This document shows, in pieces, positions 5,016 to 50,031 of a DNA stretch of 64,000 nt. Source of the DNA: Lytechinus pictus. Lineage: Eukaryota. Below the pieces are notes generated by a model. That model worked only from the letters and a program-made list of their open reading frames with translations, was not told where the DNA came from and did not search any database. The stretch covers positions 25,298,001-25,362,000 of the forward strand of contig NC_087250.1 in assembly GCF_037042905.1 (NCBI RefSeq). The letters run 5' to 3'. Numbering within the stretch: the first letter of the stretch is position 1; every line of letters begins with the position of its first letter. A program made the translations under genes and the position numbers.

Positions 5016-5049
5016 TTAAATCTCTCTCTCGTGCATGACTCCCAAACAT

Positions 5050-6675: not shown

Positions 6676-6717
6676 TTACAAATGTTCAATTGGTCTAATA
6701 TAAATTTGTCTAATTGT

Positions 6718-22309: not shown

Positions 22310-22420
22310 ATGACTTCTTTTACCGTAGAAAGCCCGAATGTTCGGTATTTTCCTGACCACATCGAATCTGAATATGTTTACCAGACGACAAAAGTGGAGA
22401 GAAATAGCCAGAATATTAAG
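22310..22420 (+). CDS. ISYNA1: ISYNA1 coding exon 1 ([13 protein letters not shown]...SQNIK)
   Basis: F.VESPNV.Y N-terminus typical of eukaryotic MIPS; donor AAG|GTAATT at 22421. Confidence 0.9.
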
Positions 22421-28400: not shown

Positions 28401-31400
28401 TGAACGTTACAGAGCACGCCCTCATGAGGTCAATAGAGACCAATGCTGCGGAGGTGTCGCCATCAACGCTATTTGCAGTAGCTTCAATATTAGAAGGGGT
28501 AAACAGGCCTTCAATTTTGATATTTTTAGGGCGAGGCTGCTTTTCCATTTAGGCATTTCTATACTTGTACAGCACAAATGTATTAGAAATAGAAGGGCAA
28601 AACAAATCCCGGAGGCCAATAAGAGAGGCATCAAAGTCGGTCAACGGGATATCTATGACAAGGGCCTTTAATGACCCTGATTTAACCCTAACTAAGCCAG
28701 GCTCTTTTGGTAGTTAAAGGGGAATCCAGCCTTGGTCATAAAATGTTGTGTTGGAAAGGAGATAAATAAATGAAACAGAATGGTGAAAGTTTGAAAGAAA
28801 TCGGACTAGCAATAAGAAAGTTATGGCTACTTTAAAATTGAGATCCTTCAGACTATGTATTTCAAATTGGCAACTGGGTAAGTAAATTATGACAAGGGGC
28901 AAGGACAACTTTCCCATAGGCCATGTACTTAATTATTAGGGATTTGTGATTTTCTCCTAAGTAACCATTCCCCTGGGGCAGTAATCTAAATATAACCCGA
29001 GTAGTATATTGTTTTATATCCTCATAAAAGAAAAAAATTATTTGAAGTAAAACTTTTGAAAAAAAAAATGACATCTTAGCCATTTTATGTATTGGAGTAC
29101 ATGGATGAATAGTCCTTGCCTTACATCACTATGACATCACATATGTGGCAAATTTGAAGTCTCCATTTGTATAGTGATTACCTATATTTACAACTTTTAA
29201 AAATTCATAAATTTCTTATTGTTTGTCCGATATTGTTCAAACTTTCACTTATCAACTTGTGTGATTTTTCTTTTTCCTCTACCAAAAAGTTTTTTTTTGG
29301 GTTGGATCCCTTTTAATAAAGCCTGGGAGGTGTCTCCCAGGCTAGCCTTATGATCTTGGCTGTCAAACGTGTAATCGTGCCGATAATTGGCTCGCATGTT
29401 GTCCTTGGCATTATCTGCAAAATTTCATTTTCGTTTTTTTGAAAAAAATTTGATTCCATTTATCATGCTATTCAAAAGGGATGAATCATAAAAACTTGGA
29501 TTCTTGTTGATATTGCTTATGTATCCTTCACGCTGCAGGTTGCATACATCAACGGCTCTCCACAGAACACCTTTGTACCGGGCGTCATTGAGATGGCAGA
29601 GAGACGAGGGGTGATGATTGGTGGAGACGACTTCAAGTCAGGACAGACCAAGATCAAATCTGTCCTGGTGGACTTTCTTGTTGGTGCAGGAATCAAGCCG
29701 GTGTCGATCGTCAGTTACAACCATCTTGGGAACAATGATGGCAAGAACTTATCAGCTCCTAAACAGTTCAGGTCAAAAGAGGCAAGTAAATAATATTAAG
29801 AATAACAGGCATTTGTACAGCGCCATCTATCTAGAAATTATCTTTTATTATTTCCATGCCTTAAACTTGAGCTACTTTCCAGCGTTCAGTGCAAAATCAA
29901 GGAATTAATCCTGCCCGGTACCCATTTACCTCACATGGGTGGAGTACAGTAAACCCATTGGCGATAACCCCCCCCCCCCCATTGAAAGACAAAATGCAGA
30001 ACTATTAGACCATAACGTCCCCACAAGAAACTCTACTTTTGTTAAATCTTGGAATAGCAACAGATGGCGAGAGTCCTTGATTGCATGAATCAGAACATTT
30101 CATTTTTTTCTCTTTCAGATTTCTAAATCGAATGTCGTCGATGACGTGGTGGCATCCAACCCTATCCTCTACCCGGACGGCAAGAAACCCGACCACTGTG
30201 TCGTCATCAAGTACGTCCCTTACGTTGCAGACAGCAAGAGGGCGCTAGACGAATACACCTCCGAGATCATGATGGGCGGTAGGAACACTATATCACTCCA
30301 CAATACCTGTGAAGATTCCCTCCTTGCCACCCCCATCATTTTGGACCTGGTTATTCTCACTGAGCTGTGCCAGAGAATAGAGTTCAAATCAGGTAAGTGT
30401 GACTGCAGAAGAGGTTTACGATACACCATGTGTGAAGTCCTGGAGGGGCTAAGACAAGAAAGGGGATAGAAATAGAGGTGAATTGGAAAGGCGAGAAAGT
30501 GGAGGTTTGAAAGTATAGTATTTTCTAAATGAATATAGTCCTTAAAATGACTGTAAACCAGAAGGAATGGAAAGTTGAGTAGTAGGCAGGCGTGAGTAAA
30601 AGTCTTGAGTAGGTGAGAGAAGGCTGGCTTTAGTCGGCGAATAGAGTAGTAGCAGGAGCAAGAGAGTAGACTCGACGTTTCGCGCAGGTTGACTTAACGT
30701 CTTCAGGAGTGTCAATTCAATATTTAGGAAGTCAGTTTTTAATCTTGTAAATCTTGAATCTTGAAAATTGCAAAGTATTATTTATTGGTAAATATGCACA
30801 TAAATATTTACCAGCAGCACATGCTGAAAGGGTTAATTTACAAATAATCATAAAGTACAATATACAGATATAACAAAAGCTTATATAGTAAAAGCTTATA
30901 TTTCTTTGTGGTCACAACATTTCACAAGTACAAATGTTTGCTTTATCAGCCAAATGAACATAGTTTTCCTTGATTTTGATTGGCTGAGAAGCACTGTTAC
31001 GATGGTAACTGTCAGATAAAACAGGACATGTCAAATAAAGCGCCCGACAAGTCCTTTCATGAAACGGTGCACAGTTTTTATTTGGCTTGCTGGTGTTTTT
31101 AGTTTTTGTTTTTTTTTCCAAATTTTTTCAAGTGATTGTGTCTATCAGGGAAGGGGGGGGGGTCATTTTTAGTTATATTTTCAAGGCATTGATTTATGAT
31201 TAACTTTCTTCTCTGTCCCCACACAGCTTGCCAAAGTGAATACCAACAATTCCACAGTGTACTTTCAATCTTGAGCTATTTATGTAAAGCACCCTTGGTT
31301 CCTAGTGGTACACCGCTCGTCAATGCTTTATTCAAACAGAGGGCTTGCATTGAAAACATTTTTAGGTAAGCAAAGCACCCTTGGTTCCTAGTGGTACACC

Positions 31401-34400
31401 GCTCGTCAATGCTTTATTCAAACAGAGGGCTTGCATTGAAAACATTTTTAGGTAAGCAAAGCACCATTGGTTCCTAGTGGTACACCGCTCGTCAATGCTT
31501 TATTCAAACAGAGGGCTTGCATTGAAAACATTTTTAGGTAAGCAAAGCACCCTTGGTTCCTAGTGGTACACCGCTCGTCAATGCTTTATTCAAACAGAGG
31601 GCTTGCATTGAAAACATTTTTAGGTAAGCAAAGCACCCTTGGTTCCTAGTGGTACACCGCTCGTCAATGCTTTATTCAAACAGAGGGCTTGCATTGAAAA
31701 CATTTTTAGGTAAGCAAAGCACCATTGGTTCCTAGTGGTACACCGCTCGTCAATGCTTTATTCAAACAGAGGGCTTGCATTGAAAACATTTTTAGGTAAG
31801 CAAAGCACCCTTGGTTCCTAGTGGTACACCGCTCGTCAATGCTTTATTCAAACAGAGGGCTTGCATTGAAAACATTTTTAGGTAAGCAAAGCACCCTTGG
31901 TTCCTAGTGGTACACCGCTCGTCAATGCTTTATTCAAACAGAGGGCTTGCATTGAAAACATTTTTAGGTAAGCAAAGCACCCTTGGTTCCTAGTGGTACA
32001 CCGCTCGTCAATGCTTTATTCAAACAGAGGGCTTGCATTGAAAACATTTTTAGGTAAGCAAAGCACCCTTGGTTCCTAGTGGTACACCGCTCGTCAATGC
32101 TTTATTCAAACAGAGGGCTTGCATTGAAAACATTTTTAGGTAAGCAAAGCACCCTTGGTTCCTAGTGGTACACCGCTCGTCAATGCTTTATTCAAACAGA
32201 GGGCTTGCATTGAAAACATTTTTAGGTAAGCAAAGCACCCTTGGTTCCTAGTGGTACACCGCTCGTCAATGCTTTATTCAAACAGAGGGCTTGCATTGAA
32301 AACATTTTTAGGTAAGCAAAGCACCCTTGGTTCCTAGTGGTACACCGCTCGTCAATGCTTTATTCAAACAGAGGGCTTGCATTGAAAACATTTTTAGGTA
32401 AGCAAAGCACCCTTGGTTCCTAGTGGTACACCGCTCGTCAATGCTTTATTCAAACAGAGGGCTTGCATTGAAAACATTTTTAGGTAAGCAAAGCACCCTT
32501 GGTTCCTAGTGGTACACCGCTCGTCAATGCTTTATTCAAACAGAGGGCTTGCATTGAAAACATTTTTAGGTAAGCAAAGCACCCTTGGTTCCTAGTGGTA
32601 CACCGCTCGTCAATGCTTTATTCAAACAGAGGGCTTGCATTGAAAACATTTTTAGGTAAGCAAAGCACCCTTGGTTCCTAGTGGTACACCGCTCGTCAAT
32701 GCTTTATTCAAACAGAGGGCTTGCATTGAAAACATTTTTAGGTAAGCAAAGCACCCTTGGTTCCTAGTGGTACACCGCTCGTCAATGCTTTATTCAAACA
32801 GAGGGCTTGCATTGAAAACATTTTTAGGTAAGCAAAGCACCCTTGGTTCCTAGTGGTACACCGCTCGTCAATGCTTTATTCAAACAGAGGGCTTGCATTG
32901 AAAACATTTTTAGGTAAGCAAAGCACCCTTGGTTCCTAGTGGTACACCGCTCGTCAATGCTTTATTCAAACAGAGGGCTTGCATTGAAAACATTTTTAGG
33001 TAAGCAAAGCACCCTTGGTTCCTAGTGGTACACCGCTCGTCAATGCTTTATTCAAACAGAGGGCTTGCATTGAAAACATTTTTAGGTAAGCAAAGCACCC
33101 TTGGTTCCTAGTGGTACACCGCTCGTCAATGCTTTATTCAAACAGAGGGCTTGCATTGAAAACATTTTTAGGTAAGCAAAGCACCCTTGGTTCCTAGTGG
33201 TACACCGCTCGTCAATGCTTTATTCAAACAGAGGGCTTGCATTGAAAACATTTTTAGGTAAGCAAAGCGCCCTTGGTTCCTAGTGGTACACCGCTCGTCA
33301 ATGCTTTATTCAAACAGAGGGCTTGCATTGAAAACATTTTTAGGTAAGCAAAGCACCCTTGGTTCCTAGTGGTACACCGCTCGTCAATGCTTTATTCAAA
33401 CAGAGGGCTTGCATTGAAAACATTTTTAGGTAAGCAAAGCACCCTTGGTTCCTAGTGGTACACCGCTCGTCAATGCTTTATTCAAACAGAGGGCTTGCAT
33501 TGAAAACATATTTAGGTAAGCAAAGCACCCTTGGTTCCTAGTGGTACACCGCTCGTCAATGCTTTATTCAAACAGAGGGCTTGCATTGAAAACATTTTTA
33601 GGTAAGCAAAGCACCCTTGGTTCCTAGTGGTACACCGCTCGTCAATGCTTTATTCAAACAGAGGGCTTGCATTGAAAACATTTTTAGGTAAGCAAAGCAC
33701 CCTTGGTTCCTAGTGGTACACCGCTCGTCAATGCTTTATTCAAACAGAGGGCTTGCATTGAAAACATTTTTAGGTAAGCAAAGCACCCTTGGTTCCTAGT
33801 GGTACACCGCTCGTCAATGCTTTATTCAAACAGAGGGCTTGCATTGAAAACATTTTTAGGTAAGCAAAGCACCCTTGGTTCCTAGTGGTACACCGCTCGT
33901 CAATGCTTTATTCAAACAGAGGGCTTGCATTGAAAACATTTTTAGGTAAGCAAAGCACCCTTGGTTCCTAGTGGTACACCGCTCGTCAATGCTTTATTCA
34001 AACAGAGGGCTTGCATTGAAAACATTTTTAGGTAAGCAAAGCACCCTTAGTTCCTAGTGGTACACCGCTCGTCAATGCTTTATTCAAACAGAGGGCTTGC
34101 ATTGAAAACATTTTTAGGTAAGCAAAGCACCCTTGGTTCCTAGTGGTACACCGCTCGTTAATGCTTTATTCAAACAGAGGGCTTGCATTGAAAACATTTT
34201 TAGGTAAGCAAAGCGCCCTTGGTTCCTAGTGGTACACCGCTCGTCAATGCTTTATTCAAACAGAGGGCTTGCATTGAAAACATTTTTAGGTAAGCAAAGC
34301 ACCCTTGGTTCCTAGTGGTACACCGCTCGTCAATGCTTTATTCAAACAGAGGGCTTGCATTGAAAACATTTTTAGGTAAGCAAAGCACCCTTGGTTCCTA

Positions 34401-37400
34401 GTGGTACACCGCTCGTCAATGCTTTATTCAAACAGAGGGCTTGCATTGAAAACATTTTTAGGTAAGCAAAGCACCCTTAGTTCCTCGTGGTACACCGCTC
34501 GTCAATGCTTTATTCAAACAGAGGGCTTGCATTGAAAACATTTTTAGGTAAGCAAAGCACCCTTGGTTCCTAGTGGTACACCGCTCGTCAATGCTTTATT
34601 CAAACAGAGGGCTTGCATTGAAAACATTTTTAGGTAAGCAAAGCGCCCTTAGTTCCTAGTGGTACACCGCTCGTCAATGCTTTATTCAAACAGAGGGCTT
34701 GCATTGAAAACATTTTTAGGTAAGCAAAGCACCCTTGGTTCCTAGTGGAACACCGCTCCTCAATGCTTTATTCAAACAGAGGGCTTGCATTGAAAACATT
34801 TTTAGGTAAGCAAAGCACCCTTGGTTCCTAGTGGTACACCGCTCGTCAATGCTTTATTCAAACAGAGGGCTTGCATTGAAAACATATTTAGGTAAGCAAA
34901 GCACCCTTAGTTCCTAAACGTACACCGCTCGTCAATGCTTTATTCAAACAGAGGGCTTGCATTGAAAACATTTTTAGGTAAGCAAAGCACCCTTGGTTCC
35001 TAGTGGTACACCACTCGTCAATGCTTTATTCAAACAGAGGGCTTGCATTGAAAACATTTTTAGGTAAGCAAAGCGCCCTTGGTTCCTAATGGTACACCGC
35101 TCGTCAATGCTTTATTCAAACAGAGGGCTTGCATTGAAAACATTTTTAGGTAAGCAAAGCACCCTTAGTTCCTAAACGTACACCGCTCGTCAATGCTTTA
35201 TTCAAACAGAGGGCTTGCATTGAAAACATTTTTAGGTAAGCAAAGCACCCTTAGTTCCTAAACGTACACCACTCGTCAATGCTTCATTCAAACAGAGGGC
35301 TTGCATTGAAAATATTTTTAGGTGAGCAAAGCACCCTTAGTTCCTAGTGGTACACCGCTCGTCAATGCTTCATTCAAACAGAGGGCTTGCATTGAAAACA
35401 TTTTTAGGTAAGCAAAGCACCCTTAGTTCCTAGTGGTACACCGCTCGTCAATGCTTTATTCAAACAGAGGGCTTGCATTGAAAACATTTTTAGGTAAGCA
35501 AAGCACCCTTAGTTCCTAGTGGTACACCGCTCGTCAATGCTTTATTCAAACAGAGGGCTTGCATTGAAAACATTTTTAGGTAAGCAAAGCACCCTTAGTT
35601 CCTAGTGGTACACCGCTCGTCAATGCTTTATTCAAACAGAGGGCTTGCATTGAAAACATTTTTAGGTAAGCAAAGCACCCTTAGTTCCTAGTGGTACACC
35701 GCTCGTCAATGCTTTATTCAAACAGAGGGCTTGCATTGAAAACATTTTTAGGTAAGCAAAGCACCCTTAGTTCCTAAACGTACACCACTCGTCAATGCTT
35801 CATTCAAACAGAGGGCTTGCATTGAAAATAATTTTAGGTAAGCAAAGCACCCTTAGTTCCTAAACGTACACCGCTCGTCAATGCTTCATTCAAACAGAGG
35901 GCTTGCATTGAAAACATTTTTAGGTAAGCAAAGCACCCTTAGTTCCTAGTGGTACACCGCTCGTCAATGCTTCATTCAAACAGAGGGCTTGCATTGAAAA
36001 CATTTTTAGGTAAGCAAAGCACCCTTAGTTCTTAGTGGTACACCGCTCGTCAATGCTTTATTCAAACAGAGGGCTTGCATTGAAAACATTTTTAGGTAAG
36101 CAAAGCACCCTTAGTTCCTAGTGGTACACCGCTCGTCAATGCTTTATTCAAACAGAGGGCTTGCATTGAAAACATTTTTAGGTAAGCAAAGCACCCTTAG
36201 TTCCTAGTGGTACACCGCTCGTCAATGCTTTATTCAAACAGAGGGCTTGCATTGAAAACATTTTTAGCTAAGCAAAGCACCCTTAGTTCCTAGTGGTACA
36301 CCGCTCGTCAATGCTTTATTCAAACAGAGGGCTTGCATTGAAAACATTTTTAGGTAAGCAAAGCACCCTTAGTTCCTAAACGTACACCACTCGTCAATGC
36401 TTCATTCAAACAGGGGGCTTGCATTGAAAATAATTTTAGGTAAGCAAAGCACCCTTAGTTCCTAAACGTACACCACTCGTCAATGCTTCATTCAAACAGA
36501 GGGCTTGCATTGAAAATAGTTTTAGGTAAGCAAAGCACCCTTAGTTCCTAGTGGTACACCGCTCGTCAATGCTTTATTCAAACAGAGGGCTTGCATTGAA
36601 AACATTTTTAGGTAAGCAAAGCGCCCTTAGTTCCTAAACGTACACCACTCGTCAATGCTTCATTCAAACAGAGGGCTTGCATTGAAAATAATTTTAGGTA
36701 AGCAAAGCACCCTTAGTTCCTAGTGGTACACCGCTCGTCAATGCTTTATTCAAACAGAGGGCTTGCATTGAAAACATTTTTAGGTAAGCAAAGCACCCTT
36801 AGTTCCTAGTGGTACACCGCTCGTCAATGCTTTATTCAAACAGAGGGCTTGCATTGAAAACATTTTTAGGTAAGCAAAGCACCCTTAGTTCCTAGTGGTA
36901 CACCGCTCGTCAATGCTTTATTCAAACAGAGGGCTTGCATTGAAAACATTTTTAGGTAAGCAAAGCACCCTTAGTTCCTAAACGTACACCACTCGTCAAT
37001 GCTTCATTCAAACAGAGGGCTTGCATTGAAAACATTTTTAGGTAAGCAAAGCACCCTTAGTTCCTAGTGGTACACCGCTCGTCAATGCTTTATTCAAACA
37101 GAGGGCTTGCATTGAAAACATTTTTAGGTAAGCAAAGCGCCCTTAGTTCCTAAACGTACACCGCTCGTCAATGCTTTATTCAAACAGAGGGCTTGCATTG
37201 AAAACATTTTTAGGTAAGCAAAGCGCCCTTAGTTCCTAAACGTACACCGCTCGTCAATGCTTTATTCAAACAGAGGGCTTGCATTGAAAACATTTTTAGG
37301 TAAGCAAAGCGCCCTTAGTTCCTAAACGTACACCGCTCGTCAATGCTTTATTCAAACAGAGGGCTTGCATTGAAAACATTTTTAGGTAAGCAAAGCGCCC

Positions 37401-40400
37401 TTAGTTCCTAAACGTACACCGCTCGTCAATGCTTTATTCAAACAGAGGGCTTGCATTGAAAACATTTTTAGGTAAGCAAAGCGCCCTTAGTTCCTAAACG
37501 TACACCACTCGTCAATGCTTTATTCAAACAGAGGGCTTGCATTGAAAATATTTTTAGGTAAGCAAAGCACCCTTTGTTCCTAAACGTACACCACTTGTCA
37601 ATGCTTTATTCAAACAGAGGGCTTGCATTGAAAACATTTTTAGGTAAGCAAAGCACCCTTAGTTCCTAAACGTACACCACTCGTCAATGCTTCATTCAAA
37701 CAGAGGGCTTGCATTGAAAACATTTTTAGGTAAGCAAAGCACCCTTGGTTCCTAGTGGTACACCACTCGTCAATGCTTTATTCAAACAGAGGGCTTGCAT
37801 TGAAAACATTTTTAGGTAAGCAAAGCGCCCTTGGTTCCTAATGGTACACCGCTCGTCAATGCTTTATTCAAACAGAGGGCTTGCATTGAAAACATTTTTA
37901 GGTAAGCAAAGCACCCTTAGTTCCTAAACGTACACCGCTCGTCAATGCTTTATTCAAACAGAGGGCTTGCATTGAAAACATTTTTAGGTAAGCAAAGCAC
38001 CCTTAGTTCCTAAACGTACACCACTCGTCAATGCTTCATTCAAACAGAGGGCTTGCATTGAAAATATTTTTAGGTAAGCAAAGCACCCTTAGTTCCTAGT
38101 GGTACACCGCTCGTCAATGCTTCATTCAAACAGAGGGCTTGCATTGAAAACATTTTTAGGTAAGCAAAGCACCCTTGGTTCCTAGTGGTACACCACTCGT
38201 CAATGCTTTATTCAAACAGAGGGCTTGCATTGAAAACATTTTTAGGTAAGCAAAGCGCCCTTGGTTCCTAATGGTACACCGCTCGTCAATGCTTTATTCA
38301 AACAGAGGGCTTGCATTGAAAACATTTTTAGGTAAGCAAAGCACCCTTAGTTCCTAAACGTACACCGCTCGTCAATGCTTTATTCAAACAGAGGGCTTGC
38401 ATTGAAAACATTTTTAGGTAAGCAAAGCACCCTTAGTTCCTAAACGTACACCACTCGTCAATGCTTCATTCAAACAGAGGGCTTGCATTGAAAATATTTT
38501 TAGGTAAGCAAAGCACCCTTAGTTCCTAGTGGTACACCGCTCGTCAATGCTTCATTCAAACAGAGGGCTTGCATTGAAAACATTTTTAGGTAAGCAAAGC
38601 ACCCTTAGTTCCTAGTGGTACACCGCTCGTCAATGCTTTATTCAAACAGAGGGCTTGCATTGAAAACATTTTTAGGTAAGCAAAGCACCCTTAGTTCCTA
38701 GTGGTACACCGCTCGTCAATGCTTTATTCAAACAGAGGGCTTGCATTGAAAACATTTTTAGGTAAGCAAAGCACCCTTAGTTCCTAGTGGTACACCGCTC
38801 GTCAATGCTTTATTCAAACAGAGGGCTTGCATTGAAAACATTTTTAGGTAAGCAAAGCACCCTTAGTTCCTAGTGGTACACCGCTCGTCAATGCTTTATT
38901 CAAACAGAGGGCTTGCATTGAAAACATTTTTAGGTAAGCAAAGCACCCTTAGTTCCTAAACGTACACCACTCGTCAATGCTTCATTCAAACAGAGGGCTT
39001 GCATTGAAAATAATTTTAGGTAAGCAAAGCACCCTTAGTTCCTAAACGTACACCGCTCGTCAATGCTTCATTCAAACAGAGGGCTTGCATTGAAAACATT
39101 TTTAGGTAAGCAAAGCACCCTTAGTTCCTAGTGGTACACCGCTCGTCAATGCTTCATTCAAACAGAGGGCTTGCATTGAAAACATTTTTAGGTAAGCAAA
39201 GAACCCTTAGTTCCTAGTGGTACACCGCTCGTCAATGCTTTATTCAAACAGAGGGCTTGCATTGAAAACATTTTTAGGTAAGCAAAGCACCCTTAGTTCC
39301 TAGTGGTACACCGCTCGTCAATGCTTTATTCAAACAGAGGGCTTGCATTGAAAACATTTTTAGGTAAGCAAAGCACCCTTAGTTCCTAGTGGTACACCGC
39401 TCGTCAATGCTTTATTCAAACAGAGGGCTTGCATTGAAAACATTTTTAGGTAAGCAAAGCACCCTTAGTTCCTAGTGGTACACCGCTCGTCAATGCTTTA
39501 TTCAAACAGAGGGCTTGCATTGAAAACATTTTTAGGTAAGCAAAACACCCTTAGTTCCTAAACGTACACCACTCGTCAATGCTTCATTCAAACAGGGGGC
39601 TTGCATTGAAAATAATTTTAGGTAAGCAAAGCACCCTTAGTTCCTAAACGTACACCACTCGTCAATGCTTCATTCAAACAGAGGGCTTGCATTGAAAATA
39701 ATTTTAGGTAAGCAAAGCACCCTTAGTTCCTAGTGGTACACCGCTCGTCAATGCTTTATTCAAACAGAGGGCTTGCATTGAAAACATTTTTAGGTAAGCA
39801 AAGCGCCCTTAGTTCCTAAACGTACACCACTCGTCAATGCTTCATTCAAACAGAGGGCTTGCATTGAAAATAATTTTAGGTAAGCAAAGCACCCTTAGTT
39901 CCTAGTGGTACACCGCTCGTCAATGCTTTATTCAAACAGAGGGCTTGCATTGAAAACATTTTTAGGTAAGCAAAGCACCCTTAGTTCCTAGTGGTACACC
40001 GCTCGTCAATGCTTTATTCAAACAGAGGGCTTGCATTGAAAACATTTTTAGGTAAGCAAAGCACCCTTAGTTCCTAGTGGTACACCGCTCGTCAATGCTT
40101 TATTCAAACAGAGGGCTTGCATTGAAAACATTTTTAGGTAAGCAAAGCGCCCTTAGTTCCTAAACGTACACCGCTCGTCAATGCTTTATTCAAACAGAGG
40201 GCTTGCATTGAAAACATTTTTAGGTAAGCAAAGCGCCCTTAGTTCCTAAACGTACACCGCTCGTCAATGCTTTATTCAAACAGAGGGCTTGCATTGAAAA
40301 CATTTTTAGGTAAGCAAAGCGCCCTTAGTTCCTAAACGTACACCGCTCGTCAATGCTTTATTCAAACAGAGGGCTTGCATTGAAAACATTTTTAGGTAAG

Positions 40401-43400
40401 CAAAGCGCCCTTAGTTCCTAAACGTACACCGCTCGTCAATGCTTTATTCAAACAGAGGGCTTGCATTGAAAACATTTTTAGGTAAGCAAAGCGCCCTTAG
40501 TTCCTAAACGTACACCGCTCGTCAATGCTTTATTCAAACAGAGGGCTTGCATTGAAAACATTTTTAGGTAAGCAAAGCGCCCTTAGTTCCTAAACGTACA
40601 CCACTCGTCAATGCTTTATTCAAACAGAGGGCTTGCATTGAAAATATTTTTAGGTAAGCAAAGCACCCTTTGTTCCTAAACGTACACCACTTGTTAATGC
40701 TTTATTCAAACAGAGGGCTTGCATTGAAAACATTTTTAGGTAAGCAAAGCACCCTTAGTTCCTAAACGTACACCACTCGTCAATGCTTCATTCAAACAGA
40801 GGGCTTGCATTGAAAACATTTTTAGGTAAGCAAAGCACCCTTGGTTCCTAGTGGTACACCACTCGTCAATGCTTTATTCAAACAGAGGGCTTGCATTGAA
40901 AACATTTTTAGGTAAGCAAAGCGCCCTTGGTTCCTAATGGTACACCGCTCGTCAATGCTTTATTCAAACAGAGGGCTTGCATTGAAAACATTTTTAGGTA
41001 AGCAAAGCACCCTTAGTTCCTAAACGTACACCGCTCGTCAATGCTTTATTCAAACAGAGGGCTTGCATTGAAAACATTTTTAGGTAAGCAAAGCACCCTT
41101 AGTTCCTAAACGTACACCACTCGTCAATGCTTCATTCAAACAGAGGGCTTGCATTGAAAATATTTTTAGGTAAGCAAAGCACCCTTAGTTCCTAGTGGTA
41201 CACCGCTCGTCAATGCTTCATTCAAACAGAGGGCTTGCATTGAAAACATTTTTAGGTAAGCAAAGCACCCTTAGTTCCTAGTGGTACACCGCTCGTCAAT
41301 GCTTTATTCAAACAGAGGGCTTGCATTGAAAACATTTTTAGGTAAGCAAAGCACCCTTAGTTCCTAGTGGTACACCGCTCGTCAATGCTTTATTCAAACA
41401 GAGGGCTTGCATTGAAAACATTTTTAGGTAAGCAAAGCACCCTTAGTTCCTAGTGGTACACCGCTCGTCAATGCTTTATTCAAACAGAGGGCTTGCATTG
41501 AAAACATTTTTAGGTAAGCAAAGCACCCTTAGTTCCTAGTGGTACACCGCTCGTCAATGCTTTATTCAAACAGAGGGCTTGCATTGAAAACATTTTTAGG
41601 TAAGCAAAGCACCCTTAGTTCCTAGTGGTACACCGCTCGTCAATGCTTTATTCAAACAGAGGGCTTGCATTGAAAACATTTTTAGGTAAGCAAAACACCC
41701 TTAGTTCCTAAACGTACACCACTCGTCAATGCTTCATTCAAACAGGGGGCTTGCATTGAAAATAATTTTAGGTAAGCAAAGCACCCTTAGTTCCTAAACG
41801 TACACCACTCGTCAATGCTTCATTCAAACAGAGGGCTTGCATTGAAAATAATTTTAGGTAAGCAAAGCACCCTTAGTTCCTAGTGGTACACCGCTCGTCA
41901 ATGCTTTATTCAAACAGAGGGCTTGCATTGAAAACATTTTTAGGTAAGCAAAGCGCCCTTAGTTCCTAAACGTACACCACTCGTCAATGCTTCATTCAAA
42001 CAGAGGGCTTGCATTGAAAATAATTTTAGGTAAGCAAAGCACCCTTAGTTCCTAGTGGTACACCGCTCGTCAATGCTTTATTCAAACAGAGGGCTTGCAT
42101 TGAAAACATTTTTAGGTAAGCAAAGCACCCTTAGTTCCTAGTGGTACACCGCTCGTCAATGCTTTATTCAAACAGAGGGCTTGCATTGAAAACATTTTTA
42201 GGTAAGCAAAGCACCCTTAGTTCCTAGTGGTACACCGCTCGTCAATGCTTTATTCAAACAGAGGGCTTGCATTGAAAACATTTTTAGGTAAGCAAAGCGC
42301 CCTTAGTTCCTAAACGTACACCGCTCGTCAATGCTTTATTCAAACAGAGGGCTTGCATTGAAAACATTTTTAGGTAAGCAAAGCGCCCTTAGTTCCTAAA
42401 CGTACACCGCTCGTCAATGCTTTATTCAAACAGAGGGCTTGCATTGAAAACATTTTTAGGTAAGCAAAGCGCCCTTAGTTCCTAAACGTACACCGCTCGT
42501 CAATGCTTTATTCAAACAGAGGGCTTGCATTGAAAACATTTTTAGGTAAGCAAAGCGCCCTTAGTTCCTAAACGTACACCGCTCGTCAATGCTTTATTCA
42601 AACAGAGGGCTTGCATTGAAAACATTTTTAGGTAAGCAAAGCGCCCTTAGTTCCTAAACGTACACCGCTCGTCAATGCTTTATTCAAACAGAGGGCTTGC
42701 ATTGAAAACATTTTTAGGTAAGCAAAGCGCCCTTAGTTCCTAAACGTACACCACTCGTCAATGCTTTATTCAAACAGAGGGCTTGCATTGAAAATATTTT
42801 TAGGTAAGCAAAGCACCCTTTGTTCCTAAACGTACACCACTTGTTAATGCTTTATTCAAACAGAGGGCTTGCATTGAAAACATTTTTAGGTAAGCAAAGC
42901 ACCCTTAGTTCCTAAACGTACACCACTCGTCAATGCTTCATTCAAACAGAGGGCTTGCATTGAAAACATTTTTAGGTAAGCAAAGCACCCTTGGTTCCTA
43001 GTGGTACACCACTCGTCAATGCTTTATTCAAACAGAGGGCTTGCATTGAAAACATTTTTAGGTAAGCAAAGCGCCCTTGGTTCCTAATGGTACACCGCTC
43101 GTCAATGCTTTATTCAAACAGAGGGCTTGCATTGAAAACATTTTTAGGTAAGCAAAGCACCCTTAGTTCCTAAACGTACACCGCTCGTCAATGCTTTATT
43201 CAAACAGAGGGCTTGCATTGAAAACATTTTTAGGTAAGCAAAGCACCCTTAGTTCCTAAACGTACACCACTCGTCAATGCTTCATTCAAACAGAGGGCTT
43301 GCATTGAAAATATTTTTAGGTAAGCAAAGCACCCTTAGTTCCTAGTGGTACACCGCTCGTCAATGCTTCATTCAAACAGAGGGCTTGCATTGAAAACATT

Positions 43401-46400
43401 TTTAGGTAAGCAAAGCACCCTTAGTTCCTAGTGGTACACCGCTCGTCAATGCTTTATTCAAACAGAGGGCTTGCATTGAAAACATTTTTAGGTAAGCAAA
43501 GCACCCTTAGTTCCTAGTGGTACACCGCTCGTCAATGCTTTATTCAAACAGAGGGCTTGCATTGAAAACATTTTTAGGTAAGCAAAGCACCCTTAGTTCC
43601 TAGTGGTACACCGCTCGTCAATGCTTTATTCAAACAGAGGGCTTGCATTGAAAACATTTTTAGGTAAGCAAAGCACCCTTAGTTCCTAGTGGTACACCGC
43701 TCGTCAATGCTTTATTCAAACAGAGGGCTTGCATTGAAAACATTTTTAGGTAAGCAAAGCACCCTTAGTTCCTAAACGTACACCACTCGTCAATGCTTCA
43801 TTCAAACAGAGGGCTTGCATTGAAAATAATTTTAGGTAAGCAAAGCACCCTTAGTTCCTAAACGTACACCGCTCGTCAATGCTTCATTCAAACAGAGGGC
43901 TTGCATTGAAAACATTTTTAGGTAAGCAAAGCACCCTTAGTTCCTAGTGGTACACCGCTCGTCAATGCTTCATTCAAACAGAGGGCTTGCATTGAAAACA
44001 TTTTTAGGTAAGCAAAGCACCCTTAGTTCCTAGTGGTACACCGCTCGTCAATGCTTTATTCAAACAGAGGGCTTGCATTGAAAACATTTTTAGGTAAGCA
44101 AAGCACCCTTAGTTCCTAGTGGTACACCGCTCGTCAATGCTTTATTCAAACAGAGGGCTTGCATTGAAAACATTTTTAGGTAAGCAAAGCACCCTTAGTT
44201 CCTAGTGGTACACCGCTCGTCAATGCTTTATTCAAACAGAGGGCTTGCATTGAAAACATTTTTAGGTAAGCAAAGCACCCTTAGTTCCTAGTGGTACACC
44301 GCTCGTCAATGCTTTATTCAAACAGAGGGCTTGCATTGAAAACATTTTTAGGTAAGCAAAGCACCCTTAGTTCCTAAACGTACACCACTCGTCAATGCTT
44401 CATTCAAACAGAGGGCTTGCATTGAAAACATTTTTAGGTAAGCAAAGCACCCTTAGTTCCTAGTGGTACACCGCTCGTCAATGCTTTATTCAAACAGAGG
44501 GCTTGCATTGAAAACATTTTTAGGTAAGCAAAGCACCCTTAGTTCCTAAACGTACACCACTCGTCAATGCTTCATTCAAACAGAGGGCTTGCATTGAAAA
44601 TAATTTTAGGTAAGCAAAGCACCCTTAGTTCCTAAACGTACACCGCTCGTCAATGCTTCATTCAAACAGAGGGCTTGCATTGAAAACATTTTTAGGTAAG
44701 CAAAGCACCCTTAGTTCCTAGTGGTACACCGCTCGTCAATGCTTCATTCAAACAGAGGGCTTGCATTGAAAACATTTTTAGGTAAGCAAAGCACCCTTAG
44801 TTCCTAGTGGTACACCGCTCGTCAATGCTTTATTCAAACAGAGGGCTTGCATTGAAAACATTTTTAGGTAAGCAAAGCACCCTTAGTTCCTAGTGGTACA
44901 CCGCTCGTCAATGCTTTATTCAAACAGAGGGCTTGCATTGAAAACATTTTTAGGTAAGCAAAGCACCCTTAGTTCCTAGTGGTACACCGCTCGTCAATGC
45001 TTTATTCAAACAGAGGGCTTGCATTGAAAACATTTTTAGGTAAGCAAAGCACCCTTAGTTCCTAGTGGTACACCGCTCGTCAATGCTTTATTCAAACAGA
45101 GGGCTTGCATTGAAAACATTTTTAGGTAAGCAAAGCACCCTTAGTTCCTAAACGTACACCACTCGTCAATGCTTCATTCAAACAGAGGGCTTGCATTGAA
45201 AACATTTTTAGGTAAGCAAAGCACCCTTAGTTCCTAGTGGTACACCGCTCGTCAATGCTTTATTCAAACAGAGGGCTTGCATTGAAAACATTTTTAGGTA
45301 AGCAAAGCGCCCTTAGTTCCTAAACGTACACCGCTCGTCAATGCTTTATTCAAACAGAGGGCTTGCATTGAAAACATTTTTAGGTAAGCAAAGCGCCCTT
45401 AGTTCCTAAACGTACACCGCTCGTCAATGCTTTATTCAAACAGAGGGCTTGCATTGAAAACATTTTTAGGTAAGCAAAGCGCCCTTAGTTCCTAAACGTA
45501 CACCGCTCGTCAATGCTTTATTCAAACAGAGGGCTTGCATTGAAAACATTTTTAGGTAAGCAAAGCGCCCTTAGTTCCTAAACGTACACCGCTCGTCAAT
45601 GCTTTATTCAAACAGAGGGCTTGCATTGAAAACATTTTTAGGTAAGCAAAGCGCCCTTAGTTCCTAAACGTACACCGCTCGTCAATGCTTTATTCAAACA
45701 GAGGGCTTGCATTGAAAACATTTTTAGGTAAGCAAAGCGCCCTTAGTTCCTAAACGTACACCACTCGTCAATGCTTTATTCAAACAGAGGGCTTGCATTG
45801 AAAATATTTTTAGGTAAGCAAAGCACCCTTTGTTCCTAAACGTACACCACTTGTCAATGCTTTATTCAAACAGAGGGCTTGCATTGAACACATTTTTAGG
45901 TAAGCAAAGCACCCTTAGTTCCTAAACGTACACCACTCGTCAATGCTTCATTCAAACAGAGGGCTTGCATTGAAAATTATTTTAGGTAAGCAAAGCACCC
46001 TTAGTTCCTAAACGTACACCACTCGTCAATGCTTTATTCAAACAGAGGGCTTGCATTGAAAACATTTTTAGGTAAGCAAAGCACCCTTTGTTCCTAAACG
46101 TACACCACTTGTCAATGCTTTATTCAAACAGAGGGCTTGCATTGAAAATATTTTTAGGTAAGCAAAGCACCCTTTGTTCCTAAACGTACACCACTCGCCA
46201 ATGCTTCATTCAAACAGAGGGCTTGCATTGAAAACATTTTTAGGTAAGCAAAGCACCCTTAGTTCCTAAACGTACACCGCTCGTTAATGCTTTATTCAAA
46301 CAGAGGGCTTGCATTGAAAACATTTTTAGGTAAGCAAAGCGCCCTTAGTTCCTAAACGTACACCACTCGTCAATGCTTCATTCAAACAGAGGTCTTGCAT

Positions 46401-49383
46401 TGAAAACATATTCAGGTCTGCATTTAACCCTAAAAGGACTGGGCTATTTGAAATGTATTGAGGACTGAGGGGGATAGGCCATGAGGGCCCCCTTCTGATC
46501 TCGGCCACCATTTGCGCGATGCGCCAAAATTTGGCATGCACATTCTTTACCACATTAACTACGGTAAGAAAAAAAATTCTGGAAATAATTTTTTAAATGT
46601 ATTATGAATAAAATATGAATATTTATTTGTGAAAAACAACATTTGCATACTTAAGGCCTAATTTCAGATTTTCATTTTTTCCCTGATGTCATCTTTGCAA
46701 TCTTATTTAAAGGTTTCCATAAAGCCAAATTTTTCCTCGTGTATTTCTTTGTTTTTAGAATTTCTTATGCATTTCTGTGTTTTTTATGTTTTTTTTTCCA
46801 TTGGAATTTATTTTAAGCCATTTTGCAACTAAATGAATTAAGCGAACCAATTGAAATGAAAAATAATCACCCTTTTGATGAATTTCAACTCCCATAGAAT
46901 ATGTTCACTGAGTATTAAAATGAGCCGTTTTCGGCATGACATTGTCTTGTAAAAGTTATGATTGATCCAATAAATCGTAACTATGGAAATCCATCAGTGT
47001 CATATTTATTTCTACATAAAATTTTCAAAATGTCCTTTGTAAACAAAGGCGAACACACCAAATTGTCAAGAAAACAATGAATTTATGTAATTTACGTCAT
47101 ATCTAGAATTTTTTTTGAACATTTGTACATTTAAGATGCTGACATTGCTGGCCGACCATAGTTATGATTGATGGGATCAATCGCAACTCTTTGTAAGACG
47201 GGTCCCAGAAATATAGCTCGAAGCGTGGGGGGGGGGCTTCCCCCTACAACCACTTTCTGTTTGGTGTCATCCCCCAGTGTCTAATCTTAGTTCATATAGT
47301 TTGTCTTCTAACCATTTGGTGAAATAGTCCATTTACCACAACAATGTAGTGGATATGATTAGATGATCTGTTAATGAACCAAATTTTATTTGACTTAATT
47401 CCAATGTAATAAGTAGACGTAATGGAAATTAAGTGATCTTGGCAGCAGTAGACTAAGTGATGTTTGGACCAAGTGAACTTACATGTGGACATAGAGGTGT
47501 TAAGACTATCTGAGAATTAGACTACTGGGGCGGTATTCTGAAAACCGTGTTAGCACAAAAACGGTGTTAGCTAACACGATTGGTATTCTGAAAATTGTGT
47601 TAGCATAAAAACACGTGGCCCAAGTGGTAACACCGCGCATGGTCATGAAATGCGCAGTGCGCAACGCGCAACCCCATACGCGGTGTTAGGGAGGAAGATA
47701 ACACGAAATTTGGTATTCTGAAAATGGTGTTAGCTAAAATTTGGTTCTAAGATAACACGAACATTTAACACTGCGCTAAGGAGGGGTTAAGTTGGAAATG
47801 ACGATGGCTGTACTTTTCTGGCAGACACAAACGTCAATAAAAGAACATATATAGGGGCATAGCTATTGTCTGGCAGCACTTCCTGGAAGATTCTTTCATT
47901 TTCCAGCTTTATTTTCCATCTTACCTTTCTCTCTACAAACAATGATCAAACAGCAATTTCTTCGGAACTTCCTGTGAAAATGCACTTCAAATGCATCTTT
48001 AATTTTGATTAATTTAAATTGTTATCATAATCATGAGTTATTTATTTGGTTCCCTTTTGCCACAATAACGTTTTAAAAAAGAGGACAAAAAAGAGAGGAA
48101 GAATATTAAAACCGTCTAAAAAGCCCAAACAGCAATTAAAAAGAATGGATTAGGGATTTGGGAACTCTTCTCTAGCTAATGACAAAATTTTTACCCCTTT
48201 TCAATAGTTATAGTTCCAATGATCAAAATTTTCAACTCTCAATGCTACTAGATTATCCCGCCAGTCAATCTATATGTTTCGGATGGCGGGGGGGCAAAAG
48301 TGAAAAAAAAATATTGAGGGGGGGCTGATCACTCTACGTATTAAATCATAATAATAAAAAAAATGCGTGCGGAGCGCACCGAAAAATTACAATTTTTAAG
48401 GTTTGATAATATTTCTATGTCAGGTTCAATTTTTCTTAAACTGCTTTTCATGCTTTAAAAAAATTTGCATTGCATATTTATTTTTTAAAGTTTTCAAAAT
48501 AATTGGGGGACATAATATAGATTAACTGTGCTCCCTCTTATTTGGGGGATAATCGTCTATATACTGCCCCCTCCACCATGTCCACAATCGATCGAGGCGT
48601 CTGTCTCCCGTTTTCGTACCCATATGCTGTCTGAAATAATATATTCTTAATTGCCACTAACCCCTCCCCACGTCCCTTTCTAGCTCTAACTTTTATTTAG
48701 CTGTATGCGCTGACATAATGATGTCACAATGCAGGCTTTGTGTCACCGCGCACGCACTCTTTTCCCTAAAAATTCTGCACGATCTTTCCTTTATAACAGT
48801 GCATTTGATTGGATTAAATAGATGCAGAGTGGGAGGAGCTGAAATGAGATAACACGCAGATAACACGGTTTTCAGAATACCGATCTGGGGGTATGTTAGG
48901 GGCGTGTTAAATTAGAGAGATAACACGATATTTAACACGAAAGTTAACACGATTTTCAGAATACCGCCCCTGGTTATTAGACAAAGTGGCTATGCAGCTT
49001 TCCCATCTGGATAAAACAGTTCATTTCATTTTGACCATCTTTTGTTTGTTAAAGCACCTTGTCTCCCGTTTCTGATATTTTCTATTTATCTTTCACACAG
49101 GGCTTGTATTGGACTTCCTCCACAGAATAACATGCTACTGGAACACAAGCTTAGCAATCCAAAGTCCATCCCAGAACTCTGCACCAATGGCCTCTCCTCA
49201 GAACTGTGCACCAATGGCCTCTCCTCAGAACTGTACATCAATGGCCTTACAAACGGCCACGCCCTGCAGAATGGCAGCCTTGTCATAGAGCCTGAACCGA
49301 TCAGCAAGAAAGCAAAAGTCGCAACGTCCGAGTTCGTCAACGGCAACGGTGTTCTGCACAATGGTATGGCAGCGATTCATTAA
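22310..49383 (+). CDS. ISYNA1: Inositol-3-phosphate synthase (myo-inositol-1-phosphate synthase), whole-gene span; join(22310..22420,24861..25022,25476..25605,28101..28498,29539..29781,30119..30392,31227..31365,49101..49383), 579 aa
   Basis: The spliced translation contains the MIPS hallmark motifs [54 protein letters not shown] and KAPLVP. Exon phases are mutually consistent (0,0,1,0,0,1,2) and the exons total 1740 nt. Confidence 0.97.
23076..23533. mobile_element. TIR element in intron 1
   Basis: TIR CAGTAGAGGCGCACGGCCAATAT, flanked by the 5-bp direct repeat TAGAC; internal GGAGACTGTCTCC-type palindromes. Confidence 0.8.
24861..25022 (+). CDS. ISYNA1: ISYNA1 exon 2 (VKPIDV...[14 protein letters not shown]...KEGIR)
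   Basis: ttttcag acceptor, GTAAGA donor, NAD-binding GWGGNNG motif. Confidence 0.97.
25046..25440. mobile_element. Kolobok-like family C element filling most of intron 2
   Basis: Reverse complement of ~10740-11145; starts after TTAA. Confidence 0.7.
25476..25605 (+). CDS. ISYNA1: ISYNA1 exon 3 ([13 protein letters not shown]...[13 protein letters not shown])
   Basis: tttgcag acceptor, GTAAGT donor; not in the ORF track but translates to conserved MIPS sequence. Confidence 0.96.
28101..28498 (+). CDS. ISYNA1: ISYNA1 exon 4 ([17 protein letters not shown]...LWTANTERF...ASILEG)
   Basis: Pyrimidine tract plus tttag acceptor, GTAAAC donor, conserved motif LWTANTERF. Confidence 0.97.
28718..29312. 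mobile_element. TTAA-flanked element in intron 4 (Kolobok-like)
   Basis: TTAA|AGGGGAATCCAGCC...GGTTGGATCCCTT|TTAA. Confidence 0.7.
29539..29781 (+). CDS. ISYNA1: ISYNA1 exon 5 ([15 protein letters not shown]...[10 protein letters not shown]...FRSKE), GC donor
   Basis: ctgcag acceptor; only the donor GAG|GCAAGT restores the conserved SKE|ISKS junction in frame. Confidence 0.95.
29787..29950 (-). mobile_element. 5'-truncated SINE in intron 5
   Basis: Reverse complement of the central segment (GTAAATGGGTACC) and tail (CTAGATAGATGG...AAATGCC) of the SINE at 6718-7005. Confidence 0.7.
30119..30392 (+). CDS. ISYNA1: ISYNA1 exon 6 (ISKSNVVDD...CEDSLLA...RIEFKS)
   Basis: tctttcag acceptor, GTAAGT donor, conserved motifs. 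Confidence 0.97.
30670..30710 (-). ncRNA. Degenerate minimal type I hammerhead ribozyme (Penelope-like element remnant, ~30530-30710)
   Basis: The minus strand reads ACTC-CTGAAGA-C-(stem II, imperfect)-GAAA-CGTC-GAGT: both core boxes, a 4-bp helix I and a palindromic ACGT helix III. Confidence 0.55.
31227..31365 (+). CDS. ISYNA1: ISYNA1 exon 7 ([46 protein letters not shown]); its 3' 80 nt belong to unit 1 of the array
   Basis: acacag acceptor, GTAAGC donor at 31366; conserved SYL.KAPLVP...NAL..QR motif. Confidence 0.96.
31286..46421 (+). repeat. Tandem array of 176 x 86-bp units derived from the ISYNA1 exon 7 3' end plus 5' splice site
   Basis: Unit AAAGCACCCTTGGTTCCTAGTGGTACACCGCTCGTCAATGCTTTATTCAAACAGAGGGCTTGCATTGAAAACATTTTTAGGTAAGC. 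The first and last exon-end AGs (31365, 46415) are exactly 175 x 86 apart, so there is no net indel. Confidence 0.98.
47528..48969. mobile_element. PIF/Harbinger-like non-autonomous element in intron 7
   Basis: TIR GGGCGGTATTCTGAAAA, 3-bp TSD CTG, subterminal GGTATTCTGAAAA/TAACACG repeats. Confidence 0.85.
49101..49383 (+). CDS. ISYNA1: ISYNA1 terminal exon 8 ([17 protein letters not shown] plus low-complexity NG-rich tail)
   Basis: tttcacacag acceptor in phase 2, matching exon 7; RAC.GL.P.N.M.LE is the conserved MIPS C-terminus; TAA at 49381-49383. Confidence 0.93.
49172..49247 (+). repeat. Coding 27-bp tandem repeat x ~3 (ELCTNGLSS) in exon 8
   Basis: CAGAACT(C/G)TGCACCAATGGCCTCTCCT is repeated in frame. 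Confidence 0.9.
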
Positions 49384-49589
49384 CGAGATGGAGGCGACTA
49401 CGGCTGACGCGACCACCACCACCAAAGACTCTCTACCAGTATCGACGGTCAGTAATATCAATACACTCGTGAATGGCAGTTTCATCTGACATCACCACCT
49501 GAGACGTGTGTTACCCAAAGGCAATGAATTTGATTGCCCTTGCTGGCTTCAAAATCCCCCAATTACTGACTGGTTGTGGCGATTCATAA

Positions 49590-49595
49590 AATAAA
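49590..49595 (+). terminator. Candidate polyadenylation signal (others at 49873 and 50336)
   Basis: First AATAAA downstream of the stop codon; the site actually used is unknown. Confidence 0.35.
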
Positions 49596-49928
49596 ATTGC
49601 CTTGCCGTGTTGAGGTCTTGCTGGAGGAGCTGGGACAACCAGAGACCACATTCTATCATCGGTAATTCAAATGATTTTGTTTATGGCAGTATGCGCTGTA
49701 ATAACACCACCAATCCCTCTTCGAAGGGCAAGCATTAGTATTTAAATTGCCCTATTTCAACCCAATTTGCTATATATCTAACCATTGCAGTGGCATATTG
49801 TATTGAGTCCAAATTATTACCTCAGTAGGTACAGGAATCGTAGTCAAGGTCGGTACTTCCCACTTCCCAGTCAATAAAGCTGCTGGAGAAAACCTTCCCC
49901 CATAGACTTTGTACACATGAATCAACAC

Positions 49929-50031
49929 TAAGGTCAAGGCTGGCAAAATGTGGCCTTGAGGCTAAGGTCAAGGCTGGCAAAATGTGGCCTCGATGTTTAA
50001 GGTCAAGGCTGGCAAAATGTGGCCTTGAGGC
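49929..50031 (+). repeat. ~34-bp tandem repeat x 3 downstream of the stop codon
   Basis: TAAGGTCAAGGCTGGCAAAATGTGGCCT is repeated. Confidence 0.9.

Follow-up and report, generated by a model that had tools for sequence, protein, structure and literature searches.

A tandem array of about 176 exon-derived units at the exon 7/intron 7 boundary of the inositol-3-phosphate synthase gene of Lytechinus pictus

In the inositol-3-phosphate synthase gene of the sea urchin Lytechinus pictus, the final 80 nt of coding exon 7 together with the first six intron bases, GTAAGC, form a unit of 86 nt that is repeated in tandem down intron 7, and despite this array the gene makes a normal mRNA. The array was found in a stretch of 64,000 nt of contig NC_087250.1, here called the window, whose positions are used throughout. 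We think it probable that the array is a minisatellite with its first monomer lying across the exon 7/intron 7 boundary, that the most upstream donor is used, and that the array leaves in one intron. As such, it would be an extreme case of the known class of minisatellites at exon-intron boundaries.

The host gene and its repeated exon end

The host gene is a conserved, metabolic, single-copy gene. A search of the 812-Mb assembly with exon 4 gave one match, and the idea that a second gene copy makes the array-bearing gene dispensable was therefore rejected. Translation of the eight-exon model gives exactly P0001, a Lytechinus pictus protein of 579 aa, which contains one repeat copy and then 10 residues from exon 8, and the exon 7/exon 8 junction of the protein is conserved in the orthologues P0002, P0004, P0005 and P0099. 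The features of the locus are as follows.

22310-22420, 24861-25022, 25476-25605, 28101-28498, 29539-29781 and 30119-30392, + strand: coding exons 1-6 of the exon model
31227..31365, + strand: coding exon 7, 139 nt, from the exon model that reproduces P0001 and from tblastn
31366..49100, + strand: intron 7, 17,735 nt, phase 2, made up of the array and 2,685 nt of non-array intron
31366..46415, + strand: array of 175 units of 86 nt in tandem, in each of which GTAAGC precedes a copy of the exon 7 end (its last 80 nt)
46330..46421, + strand: last, degenerate unit (itself 46330-46415) and its junction to the unique intron, ATATTCAG|GTCTGC then ATTTAACC
49101..49383, + strand: coding sequence of exon 8 with the stop codon, behind an acceptor with a long pyrimidine tract, TTTCTATTTATCTTTCACACAG|G

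The exon 7 named in an earlier note on this DNA is thus a real exon (31227-31365), with exon 8 starting at 49101. The other introns of the gene measure 337-2,495 nt, and RNA reads of the + strand cover the 3' UTR to at least 50450. The array starts at 31286, inside exon 7, and the last 80 nt of the exon (31286-31365) form its first, exonic monomer, which is followed by the authentic donor, TAG|GTAAGC at 31365|31366.

Tandem Repeats Finder reports a single array at 31286-46417 with a period of 86, 176.0 copies, 97% matches, 0% indels and a score of 27135, the copy number being that of the assembly. When the sequence is cut in the GT register from 31366, exactly 175 units are obtained, ending at 46415, and among them 36 sequence variants occur. 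All 175 units end in AG, and 158 of them in TTTTTAG, with T at -3 to -7; GT opens 174 of the 175, GTAAG 173, and the complete AG|GTAAGC is present in 173/175. The array thus contains 174 repeats of a strong donor and 175 junctions of the form AG|G. The earlier note had described about 175 back-to-back 86-nt GT...AG units at 31366..46415, which is what we find. Its junction pattern is also real in the form AG|GTAAGC, but was overstated as a property of each junction, because the exact 15-mer CATTTTTAGGTAAGC occurs 148 times. The pattern is far beyond chance: AGGTAAGC has 173 occurrences, all within the array, and none in the remaining ~48.9 kb of the window. In addition, the genome and the window each contain 144 occurrences of a 44-mer that crosses the unit junction, and consequently the array is present nowhere else in the 812-Mb assembly. 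The claim of stepwise splicing made in the earlier note left the exon-derived nature of the unit unstated.

The 3' end of exon 7 encodes 27 residues, which every unit re-encodes. Thirty of the 175 units, all among units 1-38, are identical to the exon copy, and the diverged 'AAC' (Lys-Arg) type accounts for 67 units, the first of which is at 34892. The order of the variants along the array is non-periodic and shows a clear gradient from 5' to 3', and the 27 units 93-119 recur exactly, 25 units further on, which points to recent unequal exchange. Of the 86 unit positions 27 are variable, among them five of the nine acceptor positions (78-86). Independently of how the array is spliced, the coding exon may itself be the first member of a homogenising array, in which case intronic variants could swap into the protein. 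At the variable position of exon 7, the gene encodes the Ser common to 103 units, and the Asn of the orthologue P0002 is found in five.

Two other roles for the unit were considered. Coding read-through of the array was rejected, since a triple unit has stops in all three frames, and no open frames of at least 90 aa were found inside the array on either strand. A small-RNA or structured-RNA reading was rejected as well, on Rfam, which gave no matches at E<=1 in 31100-32000, and on folding, in which three units did no better than shuffled sequences (z = +0.51).

RNA from the locus and DNA from a relative

The raw ribo-depleted RNA runs X21 and X22 were placed on the last three units through exon 8. 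The reads carry exon-7-type letters, namely, G at 46261 (20/20 reads in X21 and 19/19 in X22), GTG at 46269-71 (21/21 and 20/20) and C at 46285 (26/27 and 22/22). Reads on unit 46244 all come from the strand of the gene, and there are none in the opposite orientation in the bin 46158-46301, which led us to reject an antisense transcript. The read depth is 20-27 on the repeat unit versus 24-32 at three exon 8 positions, and 0-0.19 in the unique intron bins 48030-48605. Together, the exon-7-type letters, the similar depth of repeat and exon 8 and the near-zero intron support one repeat copy in the mature mRNA. The RNA of the array itself is nearly absent at steady state.

The join of exon 7 to exon 8 rests on this parity of depth, on the overhang of an RNA contig and on the annotated protein. 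The contig (record 7 of X1, 887 nt, depth 17) matches 49099-49958 with zero differences, and its 27 further upstream letters do not fit the intron. The X1 contigs with exon-7-type unit letters have depths of 67.6 and ~48, compared with 17 for exon 8 and ~3 for the unique intron. A joint from the unit end to 49101 is absent among the 15 joints listed, 228 further ones being unlisted, and the tables of joints and loose ends of the read placement are filled by a high-copy element at 46878-47309, which masks any lariat-type or internal joints. At five variant sites in exon 8 and the 3' UTR, the letters of the window were found in 7/24, 15/32, 14/31, 10/23 and 17/35 reads of X21.

DNA of a related organism bears on the age of the array. 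A contig of 800 nt (record 9 of X10) covers 46336-46894 only, and it starts exactly at the start of the exon-derived part of the last unit. In this contig, GTAAGC stands directly before ATTTAACC, i.e., the exon end passes into the unique intron, and its letters T at 46379, G at 46393, T at 46413 and AA at 46418-19 equal the array consensus with GTAAGC. The X10 depth in the bin 46158-46301 is 0, and no contig of the relative lies on the unit-unit junctions, although these are Logan contigs, in which holes prove little. The array is apparently absent from the relative on the basis of these contigs, a hole in which proves nothing by itself, and since the exon end plus GTAAGC runs directly into the unique intron there, the array is probably young.

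Splicing of the array

Minisatellites across exon-intron boundaries have been described in human genes (Borensztajn et al. 2006, PMC1557585). Examples are F7 intron 7 (37 bp × 5-9), IFI 6-16 (IFI6) intron 2 (25 pseudo-sites), CBS intron 13 (15-20 repeats), LMNB2 (100 bp × 10-15) and PDGF intron 4 (81 bp × 16-18). According to that account, splicing in these minisatellites is confined to the most upstream donor or to the first three, two pseudo-sites after the authentic donor being also active in IFI 6-16 and CBS, and the arrays are tolerated since the most upstream donor wins (PMC1557585). The urchin array resembles the F7 type in that both the exon end and the authentic donor lie in its first monomer, and in that this donor is repeated identically down the intron (AG|GTAAGC in 173/175 units). 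In the F7 type, it is the most upstream site that yields normal mRNA, while the pseudo-sites are silent yet not defective; the same probably holds for the urchin array. However, the host is an echinoderm rather than a mammal, the copies number ~176 versus 5-26, and each decoy has its full exonic context, 80 nt of true coding exon versus 4 nt in F7. Furthermore, the AG at the end of the urchin exon makes each junction a formal acceptor as well, unlike those of the human minisatellites.

On the favoured reading, a segment of 86 bp, GTAAGC with the 80 nt of exon 7 before it, would have been duplicated in tandem. Unequal exchange would then have raised its number to ~176, at a time when this lineage and that of the related organism had already split. 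The spliceosome would choose the donor that lies furthest upstream, 31365|31366, whether through exon definition or through a 5'-to-3' 'first donor' choice, because in the upstream copy the real exon 7 acceptor is still present 139 nt ahead of the donor. This donor would be joined to the strong exon 8 acceptor at 49100|49101, and the 175 downstream copies would be removed within one 17.7-kb intron, with their donors as silent pseudo-sites. Use of a later donor k would add 86(k-1) nt and an immediate stop (AGG TAA), and such RNAs should therefore go to nonsense-mediated decay. Removal in a single step is the proposed route, and the mature mRNA would be identical with one step or many. In classical work on cis-competition between two strongly bound donors, the one nearer to the acceptor can win, which would predict trouble for first-donor use at this locus.

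If later donors were indeed often chosen, the extra-unit mRNAs would run into the stop in AGG TAA and be degraded through nonsense-mediated decay, the output of the gene would be lowered, and the young expansion would be mildly harmful or expression-tuning rather than neutral. In keeping with such a cost, 174 donors match the real one exactly and each has 80 nt of true exon sequence as its context, and in the frame translations a stop follows directly after the donor; two pseudo-sites past the authentic donor are also used in IFI 6-16 and CBS (PMC1557585). The rate of later-donor use is unreadable from steady-state depth, since decay would remove the RNAs in question. Nevertheless, the repeat depth is not above that of exon 8 (20-27 versus 24-32), letters of the non-exon type at 46261 and 46269-71 occur in none of ~20 reads per run, and the variant sites in X21 suggest that the allele of the window is not obviously under-expressed, although the other allele may also carry the array. 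We therefore regard a costly array as highly unlikely. It is hardly credible, in turn, that the assembler inflated a true locus with far fewer units. Long identical blocks, such as the 27 units repeated exactly, are prone to mis-sizing, and the copy number comes from the assembly; however, the 36 variants are ordered, non-periodic and graded from 5' to 3', with no indels, which is unlike a collapsed or looped assembly, and the X1 depths (67.6 and ~48 for the unit contigs versus 17 for exon 8 and ~3 for the intron) fit tens of transcribed copies.

The earlier note had proposed that the array clears itself by recursive splicing, in which dual-specific sites are used: donors would be spliced to internal TTTTTAG| acceptors in 86n-nt steps, each splice regenerating the exon 7 end and GTAAGC until the exon 8 acceptor is reached. 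Its formal logic is sound, in that the removal of whole units does regenerate the exon 7 end and a donor, and the mature mRNA is the same either way, so that one long splice and many short ones are indistinguishable in it; as an account of what happens in the cell, we find it rather unlikely. By sequence, the array can be likened to the ratchet points of Drosophila: AG (175/175) is juxtaposed to GT (174/175) or GTAAG (173/175), T stands at -3 to -7 in 158/175 units, TT at -5/-6 is present in at least 158/175, as in 196/197 fly ratchet points (Duff et al., bioRxiv 10.1101/006163), and the host intron is long (17.7 kb), fly introns with recursive splicing measuring 11-133 kb. However, the steps would be 86 nt in an intron of 17,735 nt, versus fly ratchet segments of 2,596-63,580 bp (10.1101/006163), and there are 175 sites versus 1-6 per intron. 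Fly ratchet sites are also reported to be conserved (10.1101/006163), whereas the contig of the relative goes straight into unique intron and the sites are apparently absent there, holes in such contigs proving little. All other introns of the gene are at least 337 nt long.

The unit acceptor also speaks against this proposal. As the earlier note itself cautioned, the pyrimidine tract is short, with 12/20 pyrimidines at -3..-22 and a longest run of 5, against 14-19 in 7/7 real acceptors of the gene. Within the window, 24% of 2501 background AGs reach the pyrimidine score of the unit acceptor. The sole branch-like motif, a YTNAY at -35, is separated from the acceptor by AGs at unit positions 59 and 61, and the T-tract is among the more variable parts of the unit, the acceptor positions showing nothing that points to constraint. 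In addition, the three units have no special RNA structure (z = +0.51), and recursion is unnecessary for explaining why the array is tolerated (PMC1557585). That no array RNA builds up suits efficient clearing, and the other models equally.

Further support for stepwise removal comes from other systems. An equally strong donor 86 nt past each AG|GT could define a cryptic RS-exon, as in the RS-exon model (Joseph et al. 2021, PMC8605326). The human AGGT tandem repeats of UBC and VCX3A, which use weak acceptors beside strong donors, likewise have one AGGT per unit, so that whole units are formal introns, and 77 human introns are multiples of the surrounding repeat length (PMC10809524); AGGT expansions have been proposed to be less harmful, as they are spliceable (Duan et al. 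2024, PMC10809524). However, the UBC and VCX3A units are described as exonic, multiples of 3 and variably kept in mRNA (PMC10809524), whereas the urchin unit is intronic, 86 nt long and out of frame with an immediate stop, and only the one-copy mRNA is supported. A tandem duplication containing AGGT can leave the mRNA unchanged when the GT of copy 1 is joined to the AG of copy 2 (Hellsten et al. 2011, PMC3265369). The urchin case is similar in outcome, but here the AGGT was already an exon-intron boundary, so that no new intron is required and the extra copies make an existing one longer. It is distinctly unlikely that the 175 AG|GT junctions are used in stochastic 86n-nt jumps, making the array self-clearing, with a possible kinetic delay or decay-coupled dial on inositol synthesis. 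If true, no larger array of dual-specific splice sites would be known, and every site would have an 86-nt RS-exon built in.

Significance

It is still under debate how the spliceosome singles out one 5' splice site when similar sequences lie nearby. In the human examples the decoys number 5-26 and have little exon context, whereas the urchin locus presents 174 decoy donors, each with 80 nt of authentic exon, and the real donor is set apart by position alone, being the first and lying right after the real acceptor. Consequently, a single locus allows tests of the first-donor rule, of how far exon definition goes and of the idea of recursion, in a species, Lytechinus pictus, for which stable mutant lines reportedly already exist (PMC9245184). 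In addition, the locus indicates that a 15-kb satellite can grow from the end of an exon in the history of a single species.

The host gene and its amplified exon end

The open frames flanking the array encode inositol-3-phosphate synthase. A database search with the exon 4 peptide returned the gene's own protein, P0001 (579 aa), at 100% identity, described by the source as 'inositol-3-phosphate synthase 1-A-like [Lytechinus pictus]', and the translation of an eight-exon model of the window equals P0001 letter for letter. Introns 1 to 7 of the model are 2440, 453, 2495, 1040, 337, 834 and 17,735 nt long, respectively.

Exons of the model whose translation equals P0001 (window positions)
22310-22420, + strand, exon 1
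24861-25022, + strand, exon 2
25476-25605, + strand, exon 3
28101-28498, + strand, exon 4
29539-29781, + strand, exon 5
30119-30392, + strand, exon 6
31227-31365, + strand, exon 7
49101-49383, + strand, exon 8

Intron 5 (29782-30118, 337 nt) is of the GC-AG type (GAG|GCAAGT), the sole non-GT donor among the seven. Exon 8 contains an in-frame 27-bp repeat at 49172-49247 (2.8 copies, ELCTNGLSS...), of which P0001 has one 9-residue copy more than the orthologue P0002 (570 aa), so close species differ in the repeat number of the C-terminal tail.

The array takes up 15 kb of the 17.7 kb of intron 7. Tandem Repeats Finder reported it as a single array (31286-46417) with period 86, 176.0 copies, 97% matches, no indels and a score of 27135. 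Read in register from the GT at 31366, it consists of exactly 175 units in 36 variants, the last ending at 46415. All 175 units end in AG (158 in TTTTTAG), while 174 begin with GT and 173 with GTAAG; the motif AGGTAAGC occurs 173 times inside the array and nowhere else in the window. Therefore, the earlier note described the array and its coordinates (175 units of 86 nt, 31366-46415) correctly, and only its 'each junction' was slightly overstated, since CATTTTTAGGTAAGC has 148 exact copies in the window. Each unit is composed of GTAAGC and a copy of the 80 nt encoding the terminal peptide of exon 7, so the array is the end of exon 7 with its donor, amplified about 176 times. In the 812-Mb, 368-contig assembly, where the window is C6:25298001-25362000, exon 4 of the gene has one matching place only, and a 44-mer across the unit junction has 144 occurrences genome-wide, the same number as in the window. 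Hence, the repeat is confined to intron 7 and is not a dispersed satellite.

The unit also contains CAGAG|GGCTTGCATTG (31341-31365), which is similar to the true exon 7-exon 8 junction AG|GGCTTGTATTG (49099-49115), where RACI is repeated within the protein. Splicing at this inner AG, of which no use was seen, would lengthen the mRNA in frame by 24 nt.

Origin of the array and neighbouring repeats

The unit variants form a gradient from 5' to 3', with the 30 exon-identical units all among units 1-38, and 67 'AAC' (Lys-Arg) units from 34892 on. Units 93-119 reappear unchanged 25 units further on, and a run of 12 units does so after 56 units; judged from the sequence, such large exact block repeats would be the mark of recent unequal exchange. 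At unit positions 26-28, 103 units have GTG (Ser-Gly), the state of exon 7, 67 have AAC and five have ATG (Asn-Gly), the state of P0002. The units matching P0002 and those matching exon 7 suggest that the coding exon copy and its intronic counterparts have exchanged sequence, with a parallel A/G change as the alternative.

One 800-nt contig from a related organism's DNA run matches 46336-46894 only, and its start coincides exactly with that of the exon-derived stretch in the last unit. At 46379, 46393, 46413 and 46418-19 it has T, G, T and AA, letters that match the array consensus and place GTAAGC immediately before ATTTAACC. Nothing was found for 46158-46301 in these contig data, where holes prove little. 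Thus, a single exon end followed by GTAAGC and unique intron was very probably the ancestral state, with the array as a later addition.

Three further tandem arrays, whose sequences are unrelated to that of the 86-bp unit, were found by Tandem Repeats Finder to flank the gene.

Flanking tandem arrays (window positions)
2408-3747, 131 bp x 10
5039-6676, 133/269 bp x 12
61616-62292, 84 bp x 8

Intron 7 also carries a high-copy interspersed element (46878-47309), with RNA depth of 335-1076 on both strands versus about 25 for exon 8, very high depth of contigs from the relative's DNA, and many 'opposite strands' joints from about 46981 to about 47160-47176. These features suggest an inverted repeat (foldback or MITE-like) expressed from many loci.

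Transcripts of the gene

Stranded raw reads of two ribo-depleted RNA runs (about 6% of each run) were mapped to 46158-50450 only, that is, three units, the remaining intron 7, and exon 8 with the UTR. Coverage of exon 8 and the UTR was about 15-35, all of it on the gene's strand, and that of the unique intron bins 48030-48605 was 0-0.19. On unit 46244, the reads have only the letters of the exon 7 copy: G at 46261 (20/20 and 19/19), GTG at 46269-71 (21/21 and 20/20) and C at 46285 (26/27 and 22/22), and their depth (20-27) is near that at exon 8 positions (24-32). The exon 7-type letters and this parity argue that each mature mRNA has one repeat copy and that steady-state array RNA is almost absent. 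In a third run, an 887-nt RNA contig (depth 17) fits 49099-49958 exactly, and its 27 extra upstream letters are not intronic, which fits splicing at 49100|49101. The 15 joints listed, of 15 + 228, are all from the element 46878-47309, and a joint from exon 7-type sequence to 49101 is not among them. At 49149, 49280, 49290, 49462 and 49658, about half of the RNA reads have the window's letter and half another (17/24 and 17/32 in one ribo-depleted run), so the gene is expressed from two alleles in these samples.

Donor choice in intron 7

The arrangement here is a known oddity. Minisatellites whose first monomer lies across an exon-intron boundary are described for F7, IFI 6-16, CBS, LMNB2 and PDGF (PMC1557585). 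In the same study, 50 F7 constructs revealed that the pseudo-sites are functional and that the most upstream donor is chosen in an oriented, position-based process (Borensztajn et al., PMC1557585). Applied here, this rule would select donor 1 (31365|31366) without further assumptions; donor 1 has a real acceptor 139 nt before it, and the other donors a weak AG only. By analogy, the most-upstream-donor rule is probably the explanation of the locus.

The earlier note proposed recursive splicing by stepwise or jumping splices at the internal AG|GT sites. The AG|GT architecture of the junctions, TT at -5/-6 as in 196/197 fly ratchet points (10.1101/006163) and the 17.7-kb host intron are in its favour; an identical donor 86 nt downstream could define an RS-exon (PMC8605326), and tandem-repeat AGGT sites are reported to be used despite weak acceptor scores, such that AGGT repeat expansions may be tolerated since they are removable by splicing (PMC10809524). 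However, the unit acceptor has 12/20 pyrimidines at -3 to -22 (longest run, 5) versus 14-19 in 7/7 real acceptors of the gene, its score is equalled by 24% of 2501 AGs elsewhere in the window, and the sole YTNAY motif lies 35 nt upstream with two AGs between. Positions 78-86 vary among units at 5/9 versus 27/86 overall, so the tract is without sign of constraint. In flies, recursive segments span 2.6 kb or more and their sites are conserved (10.1101/006163), and the gene's other introns are at least 337 nt; no special RNA fold was found for three units (z = +0.51), and no Rfam match at E<=1 in 31100-32000. Since the mature mRNA would be the same under the one-step and recursive models, recursion is left as unlikely.

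Read-through past donor 1 would give an immediate stop (AGG TAA), and translation of a triple unit has stops in all three frames; that later donors are often used and masked by nonsense-mediated decay seems quite improbable. It is highly improbable that the assembly inflated the array, given the ordered variant pattern among units and the depths of RNA contigs, which are 67.6 and about 48 for those with exon-type unit letters, versus 17 on exon 8 and about 3 on unique intron.

There is no evidence yet for a new mechanism. Our literature searches found no such case in echinoderms and no earlier one outside mammals. Compared with the human boundary minisatellites, the array has roughly 7-35 times more copies, and each decoy comes with the full 80 nt of exon context. 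The locus is thus an extreme case, and well suited as a natural experiment on how a donor is chosen.
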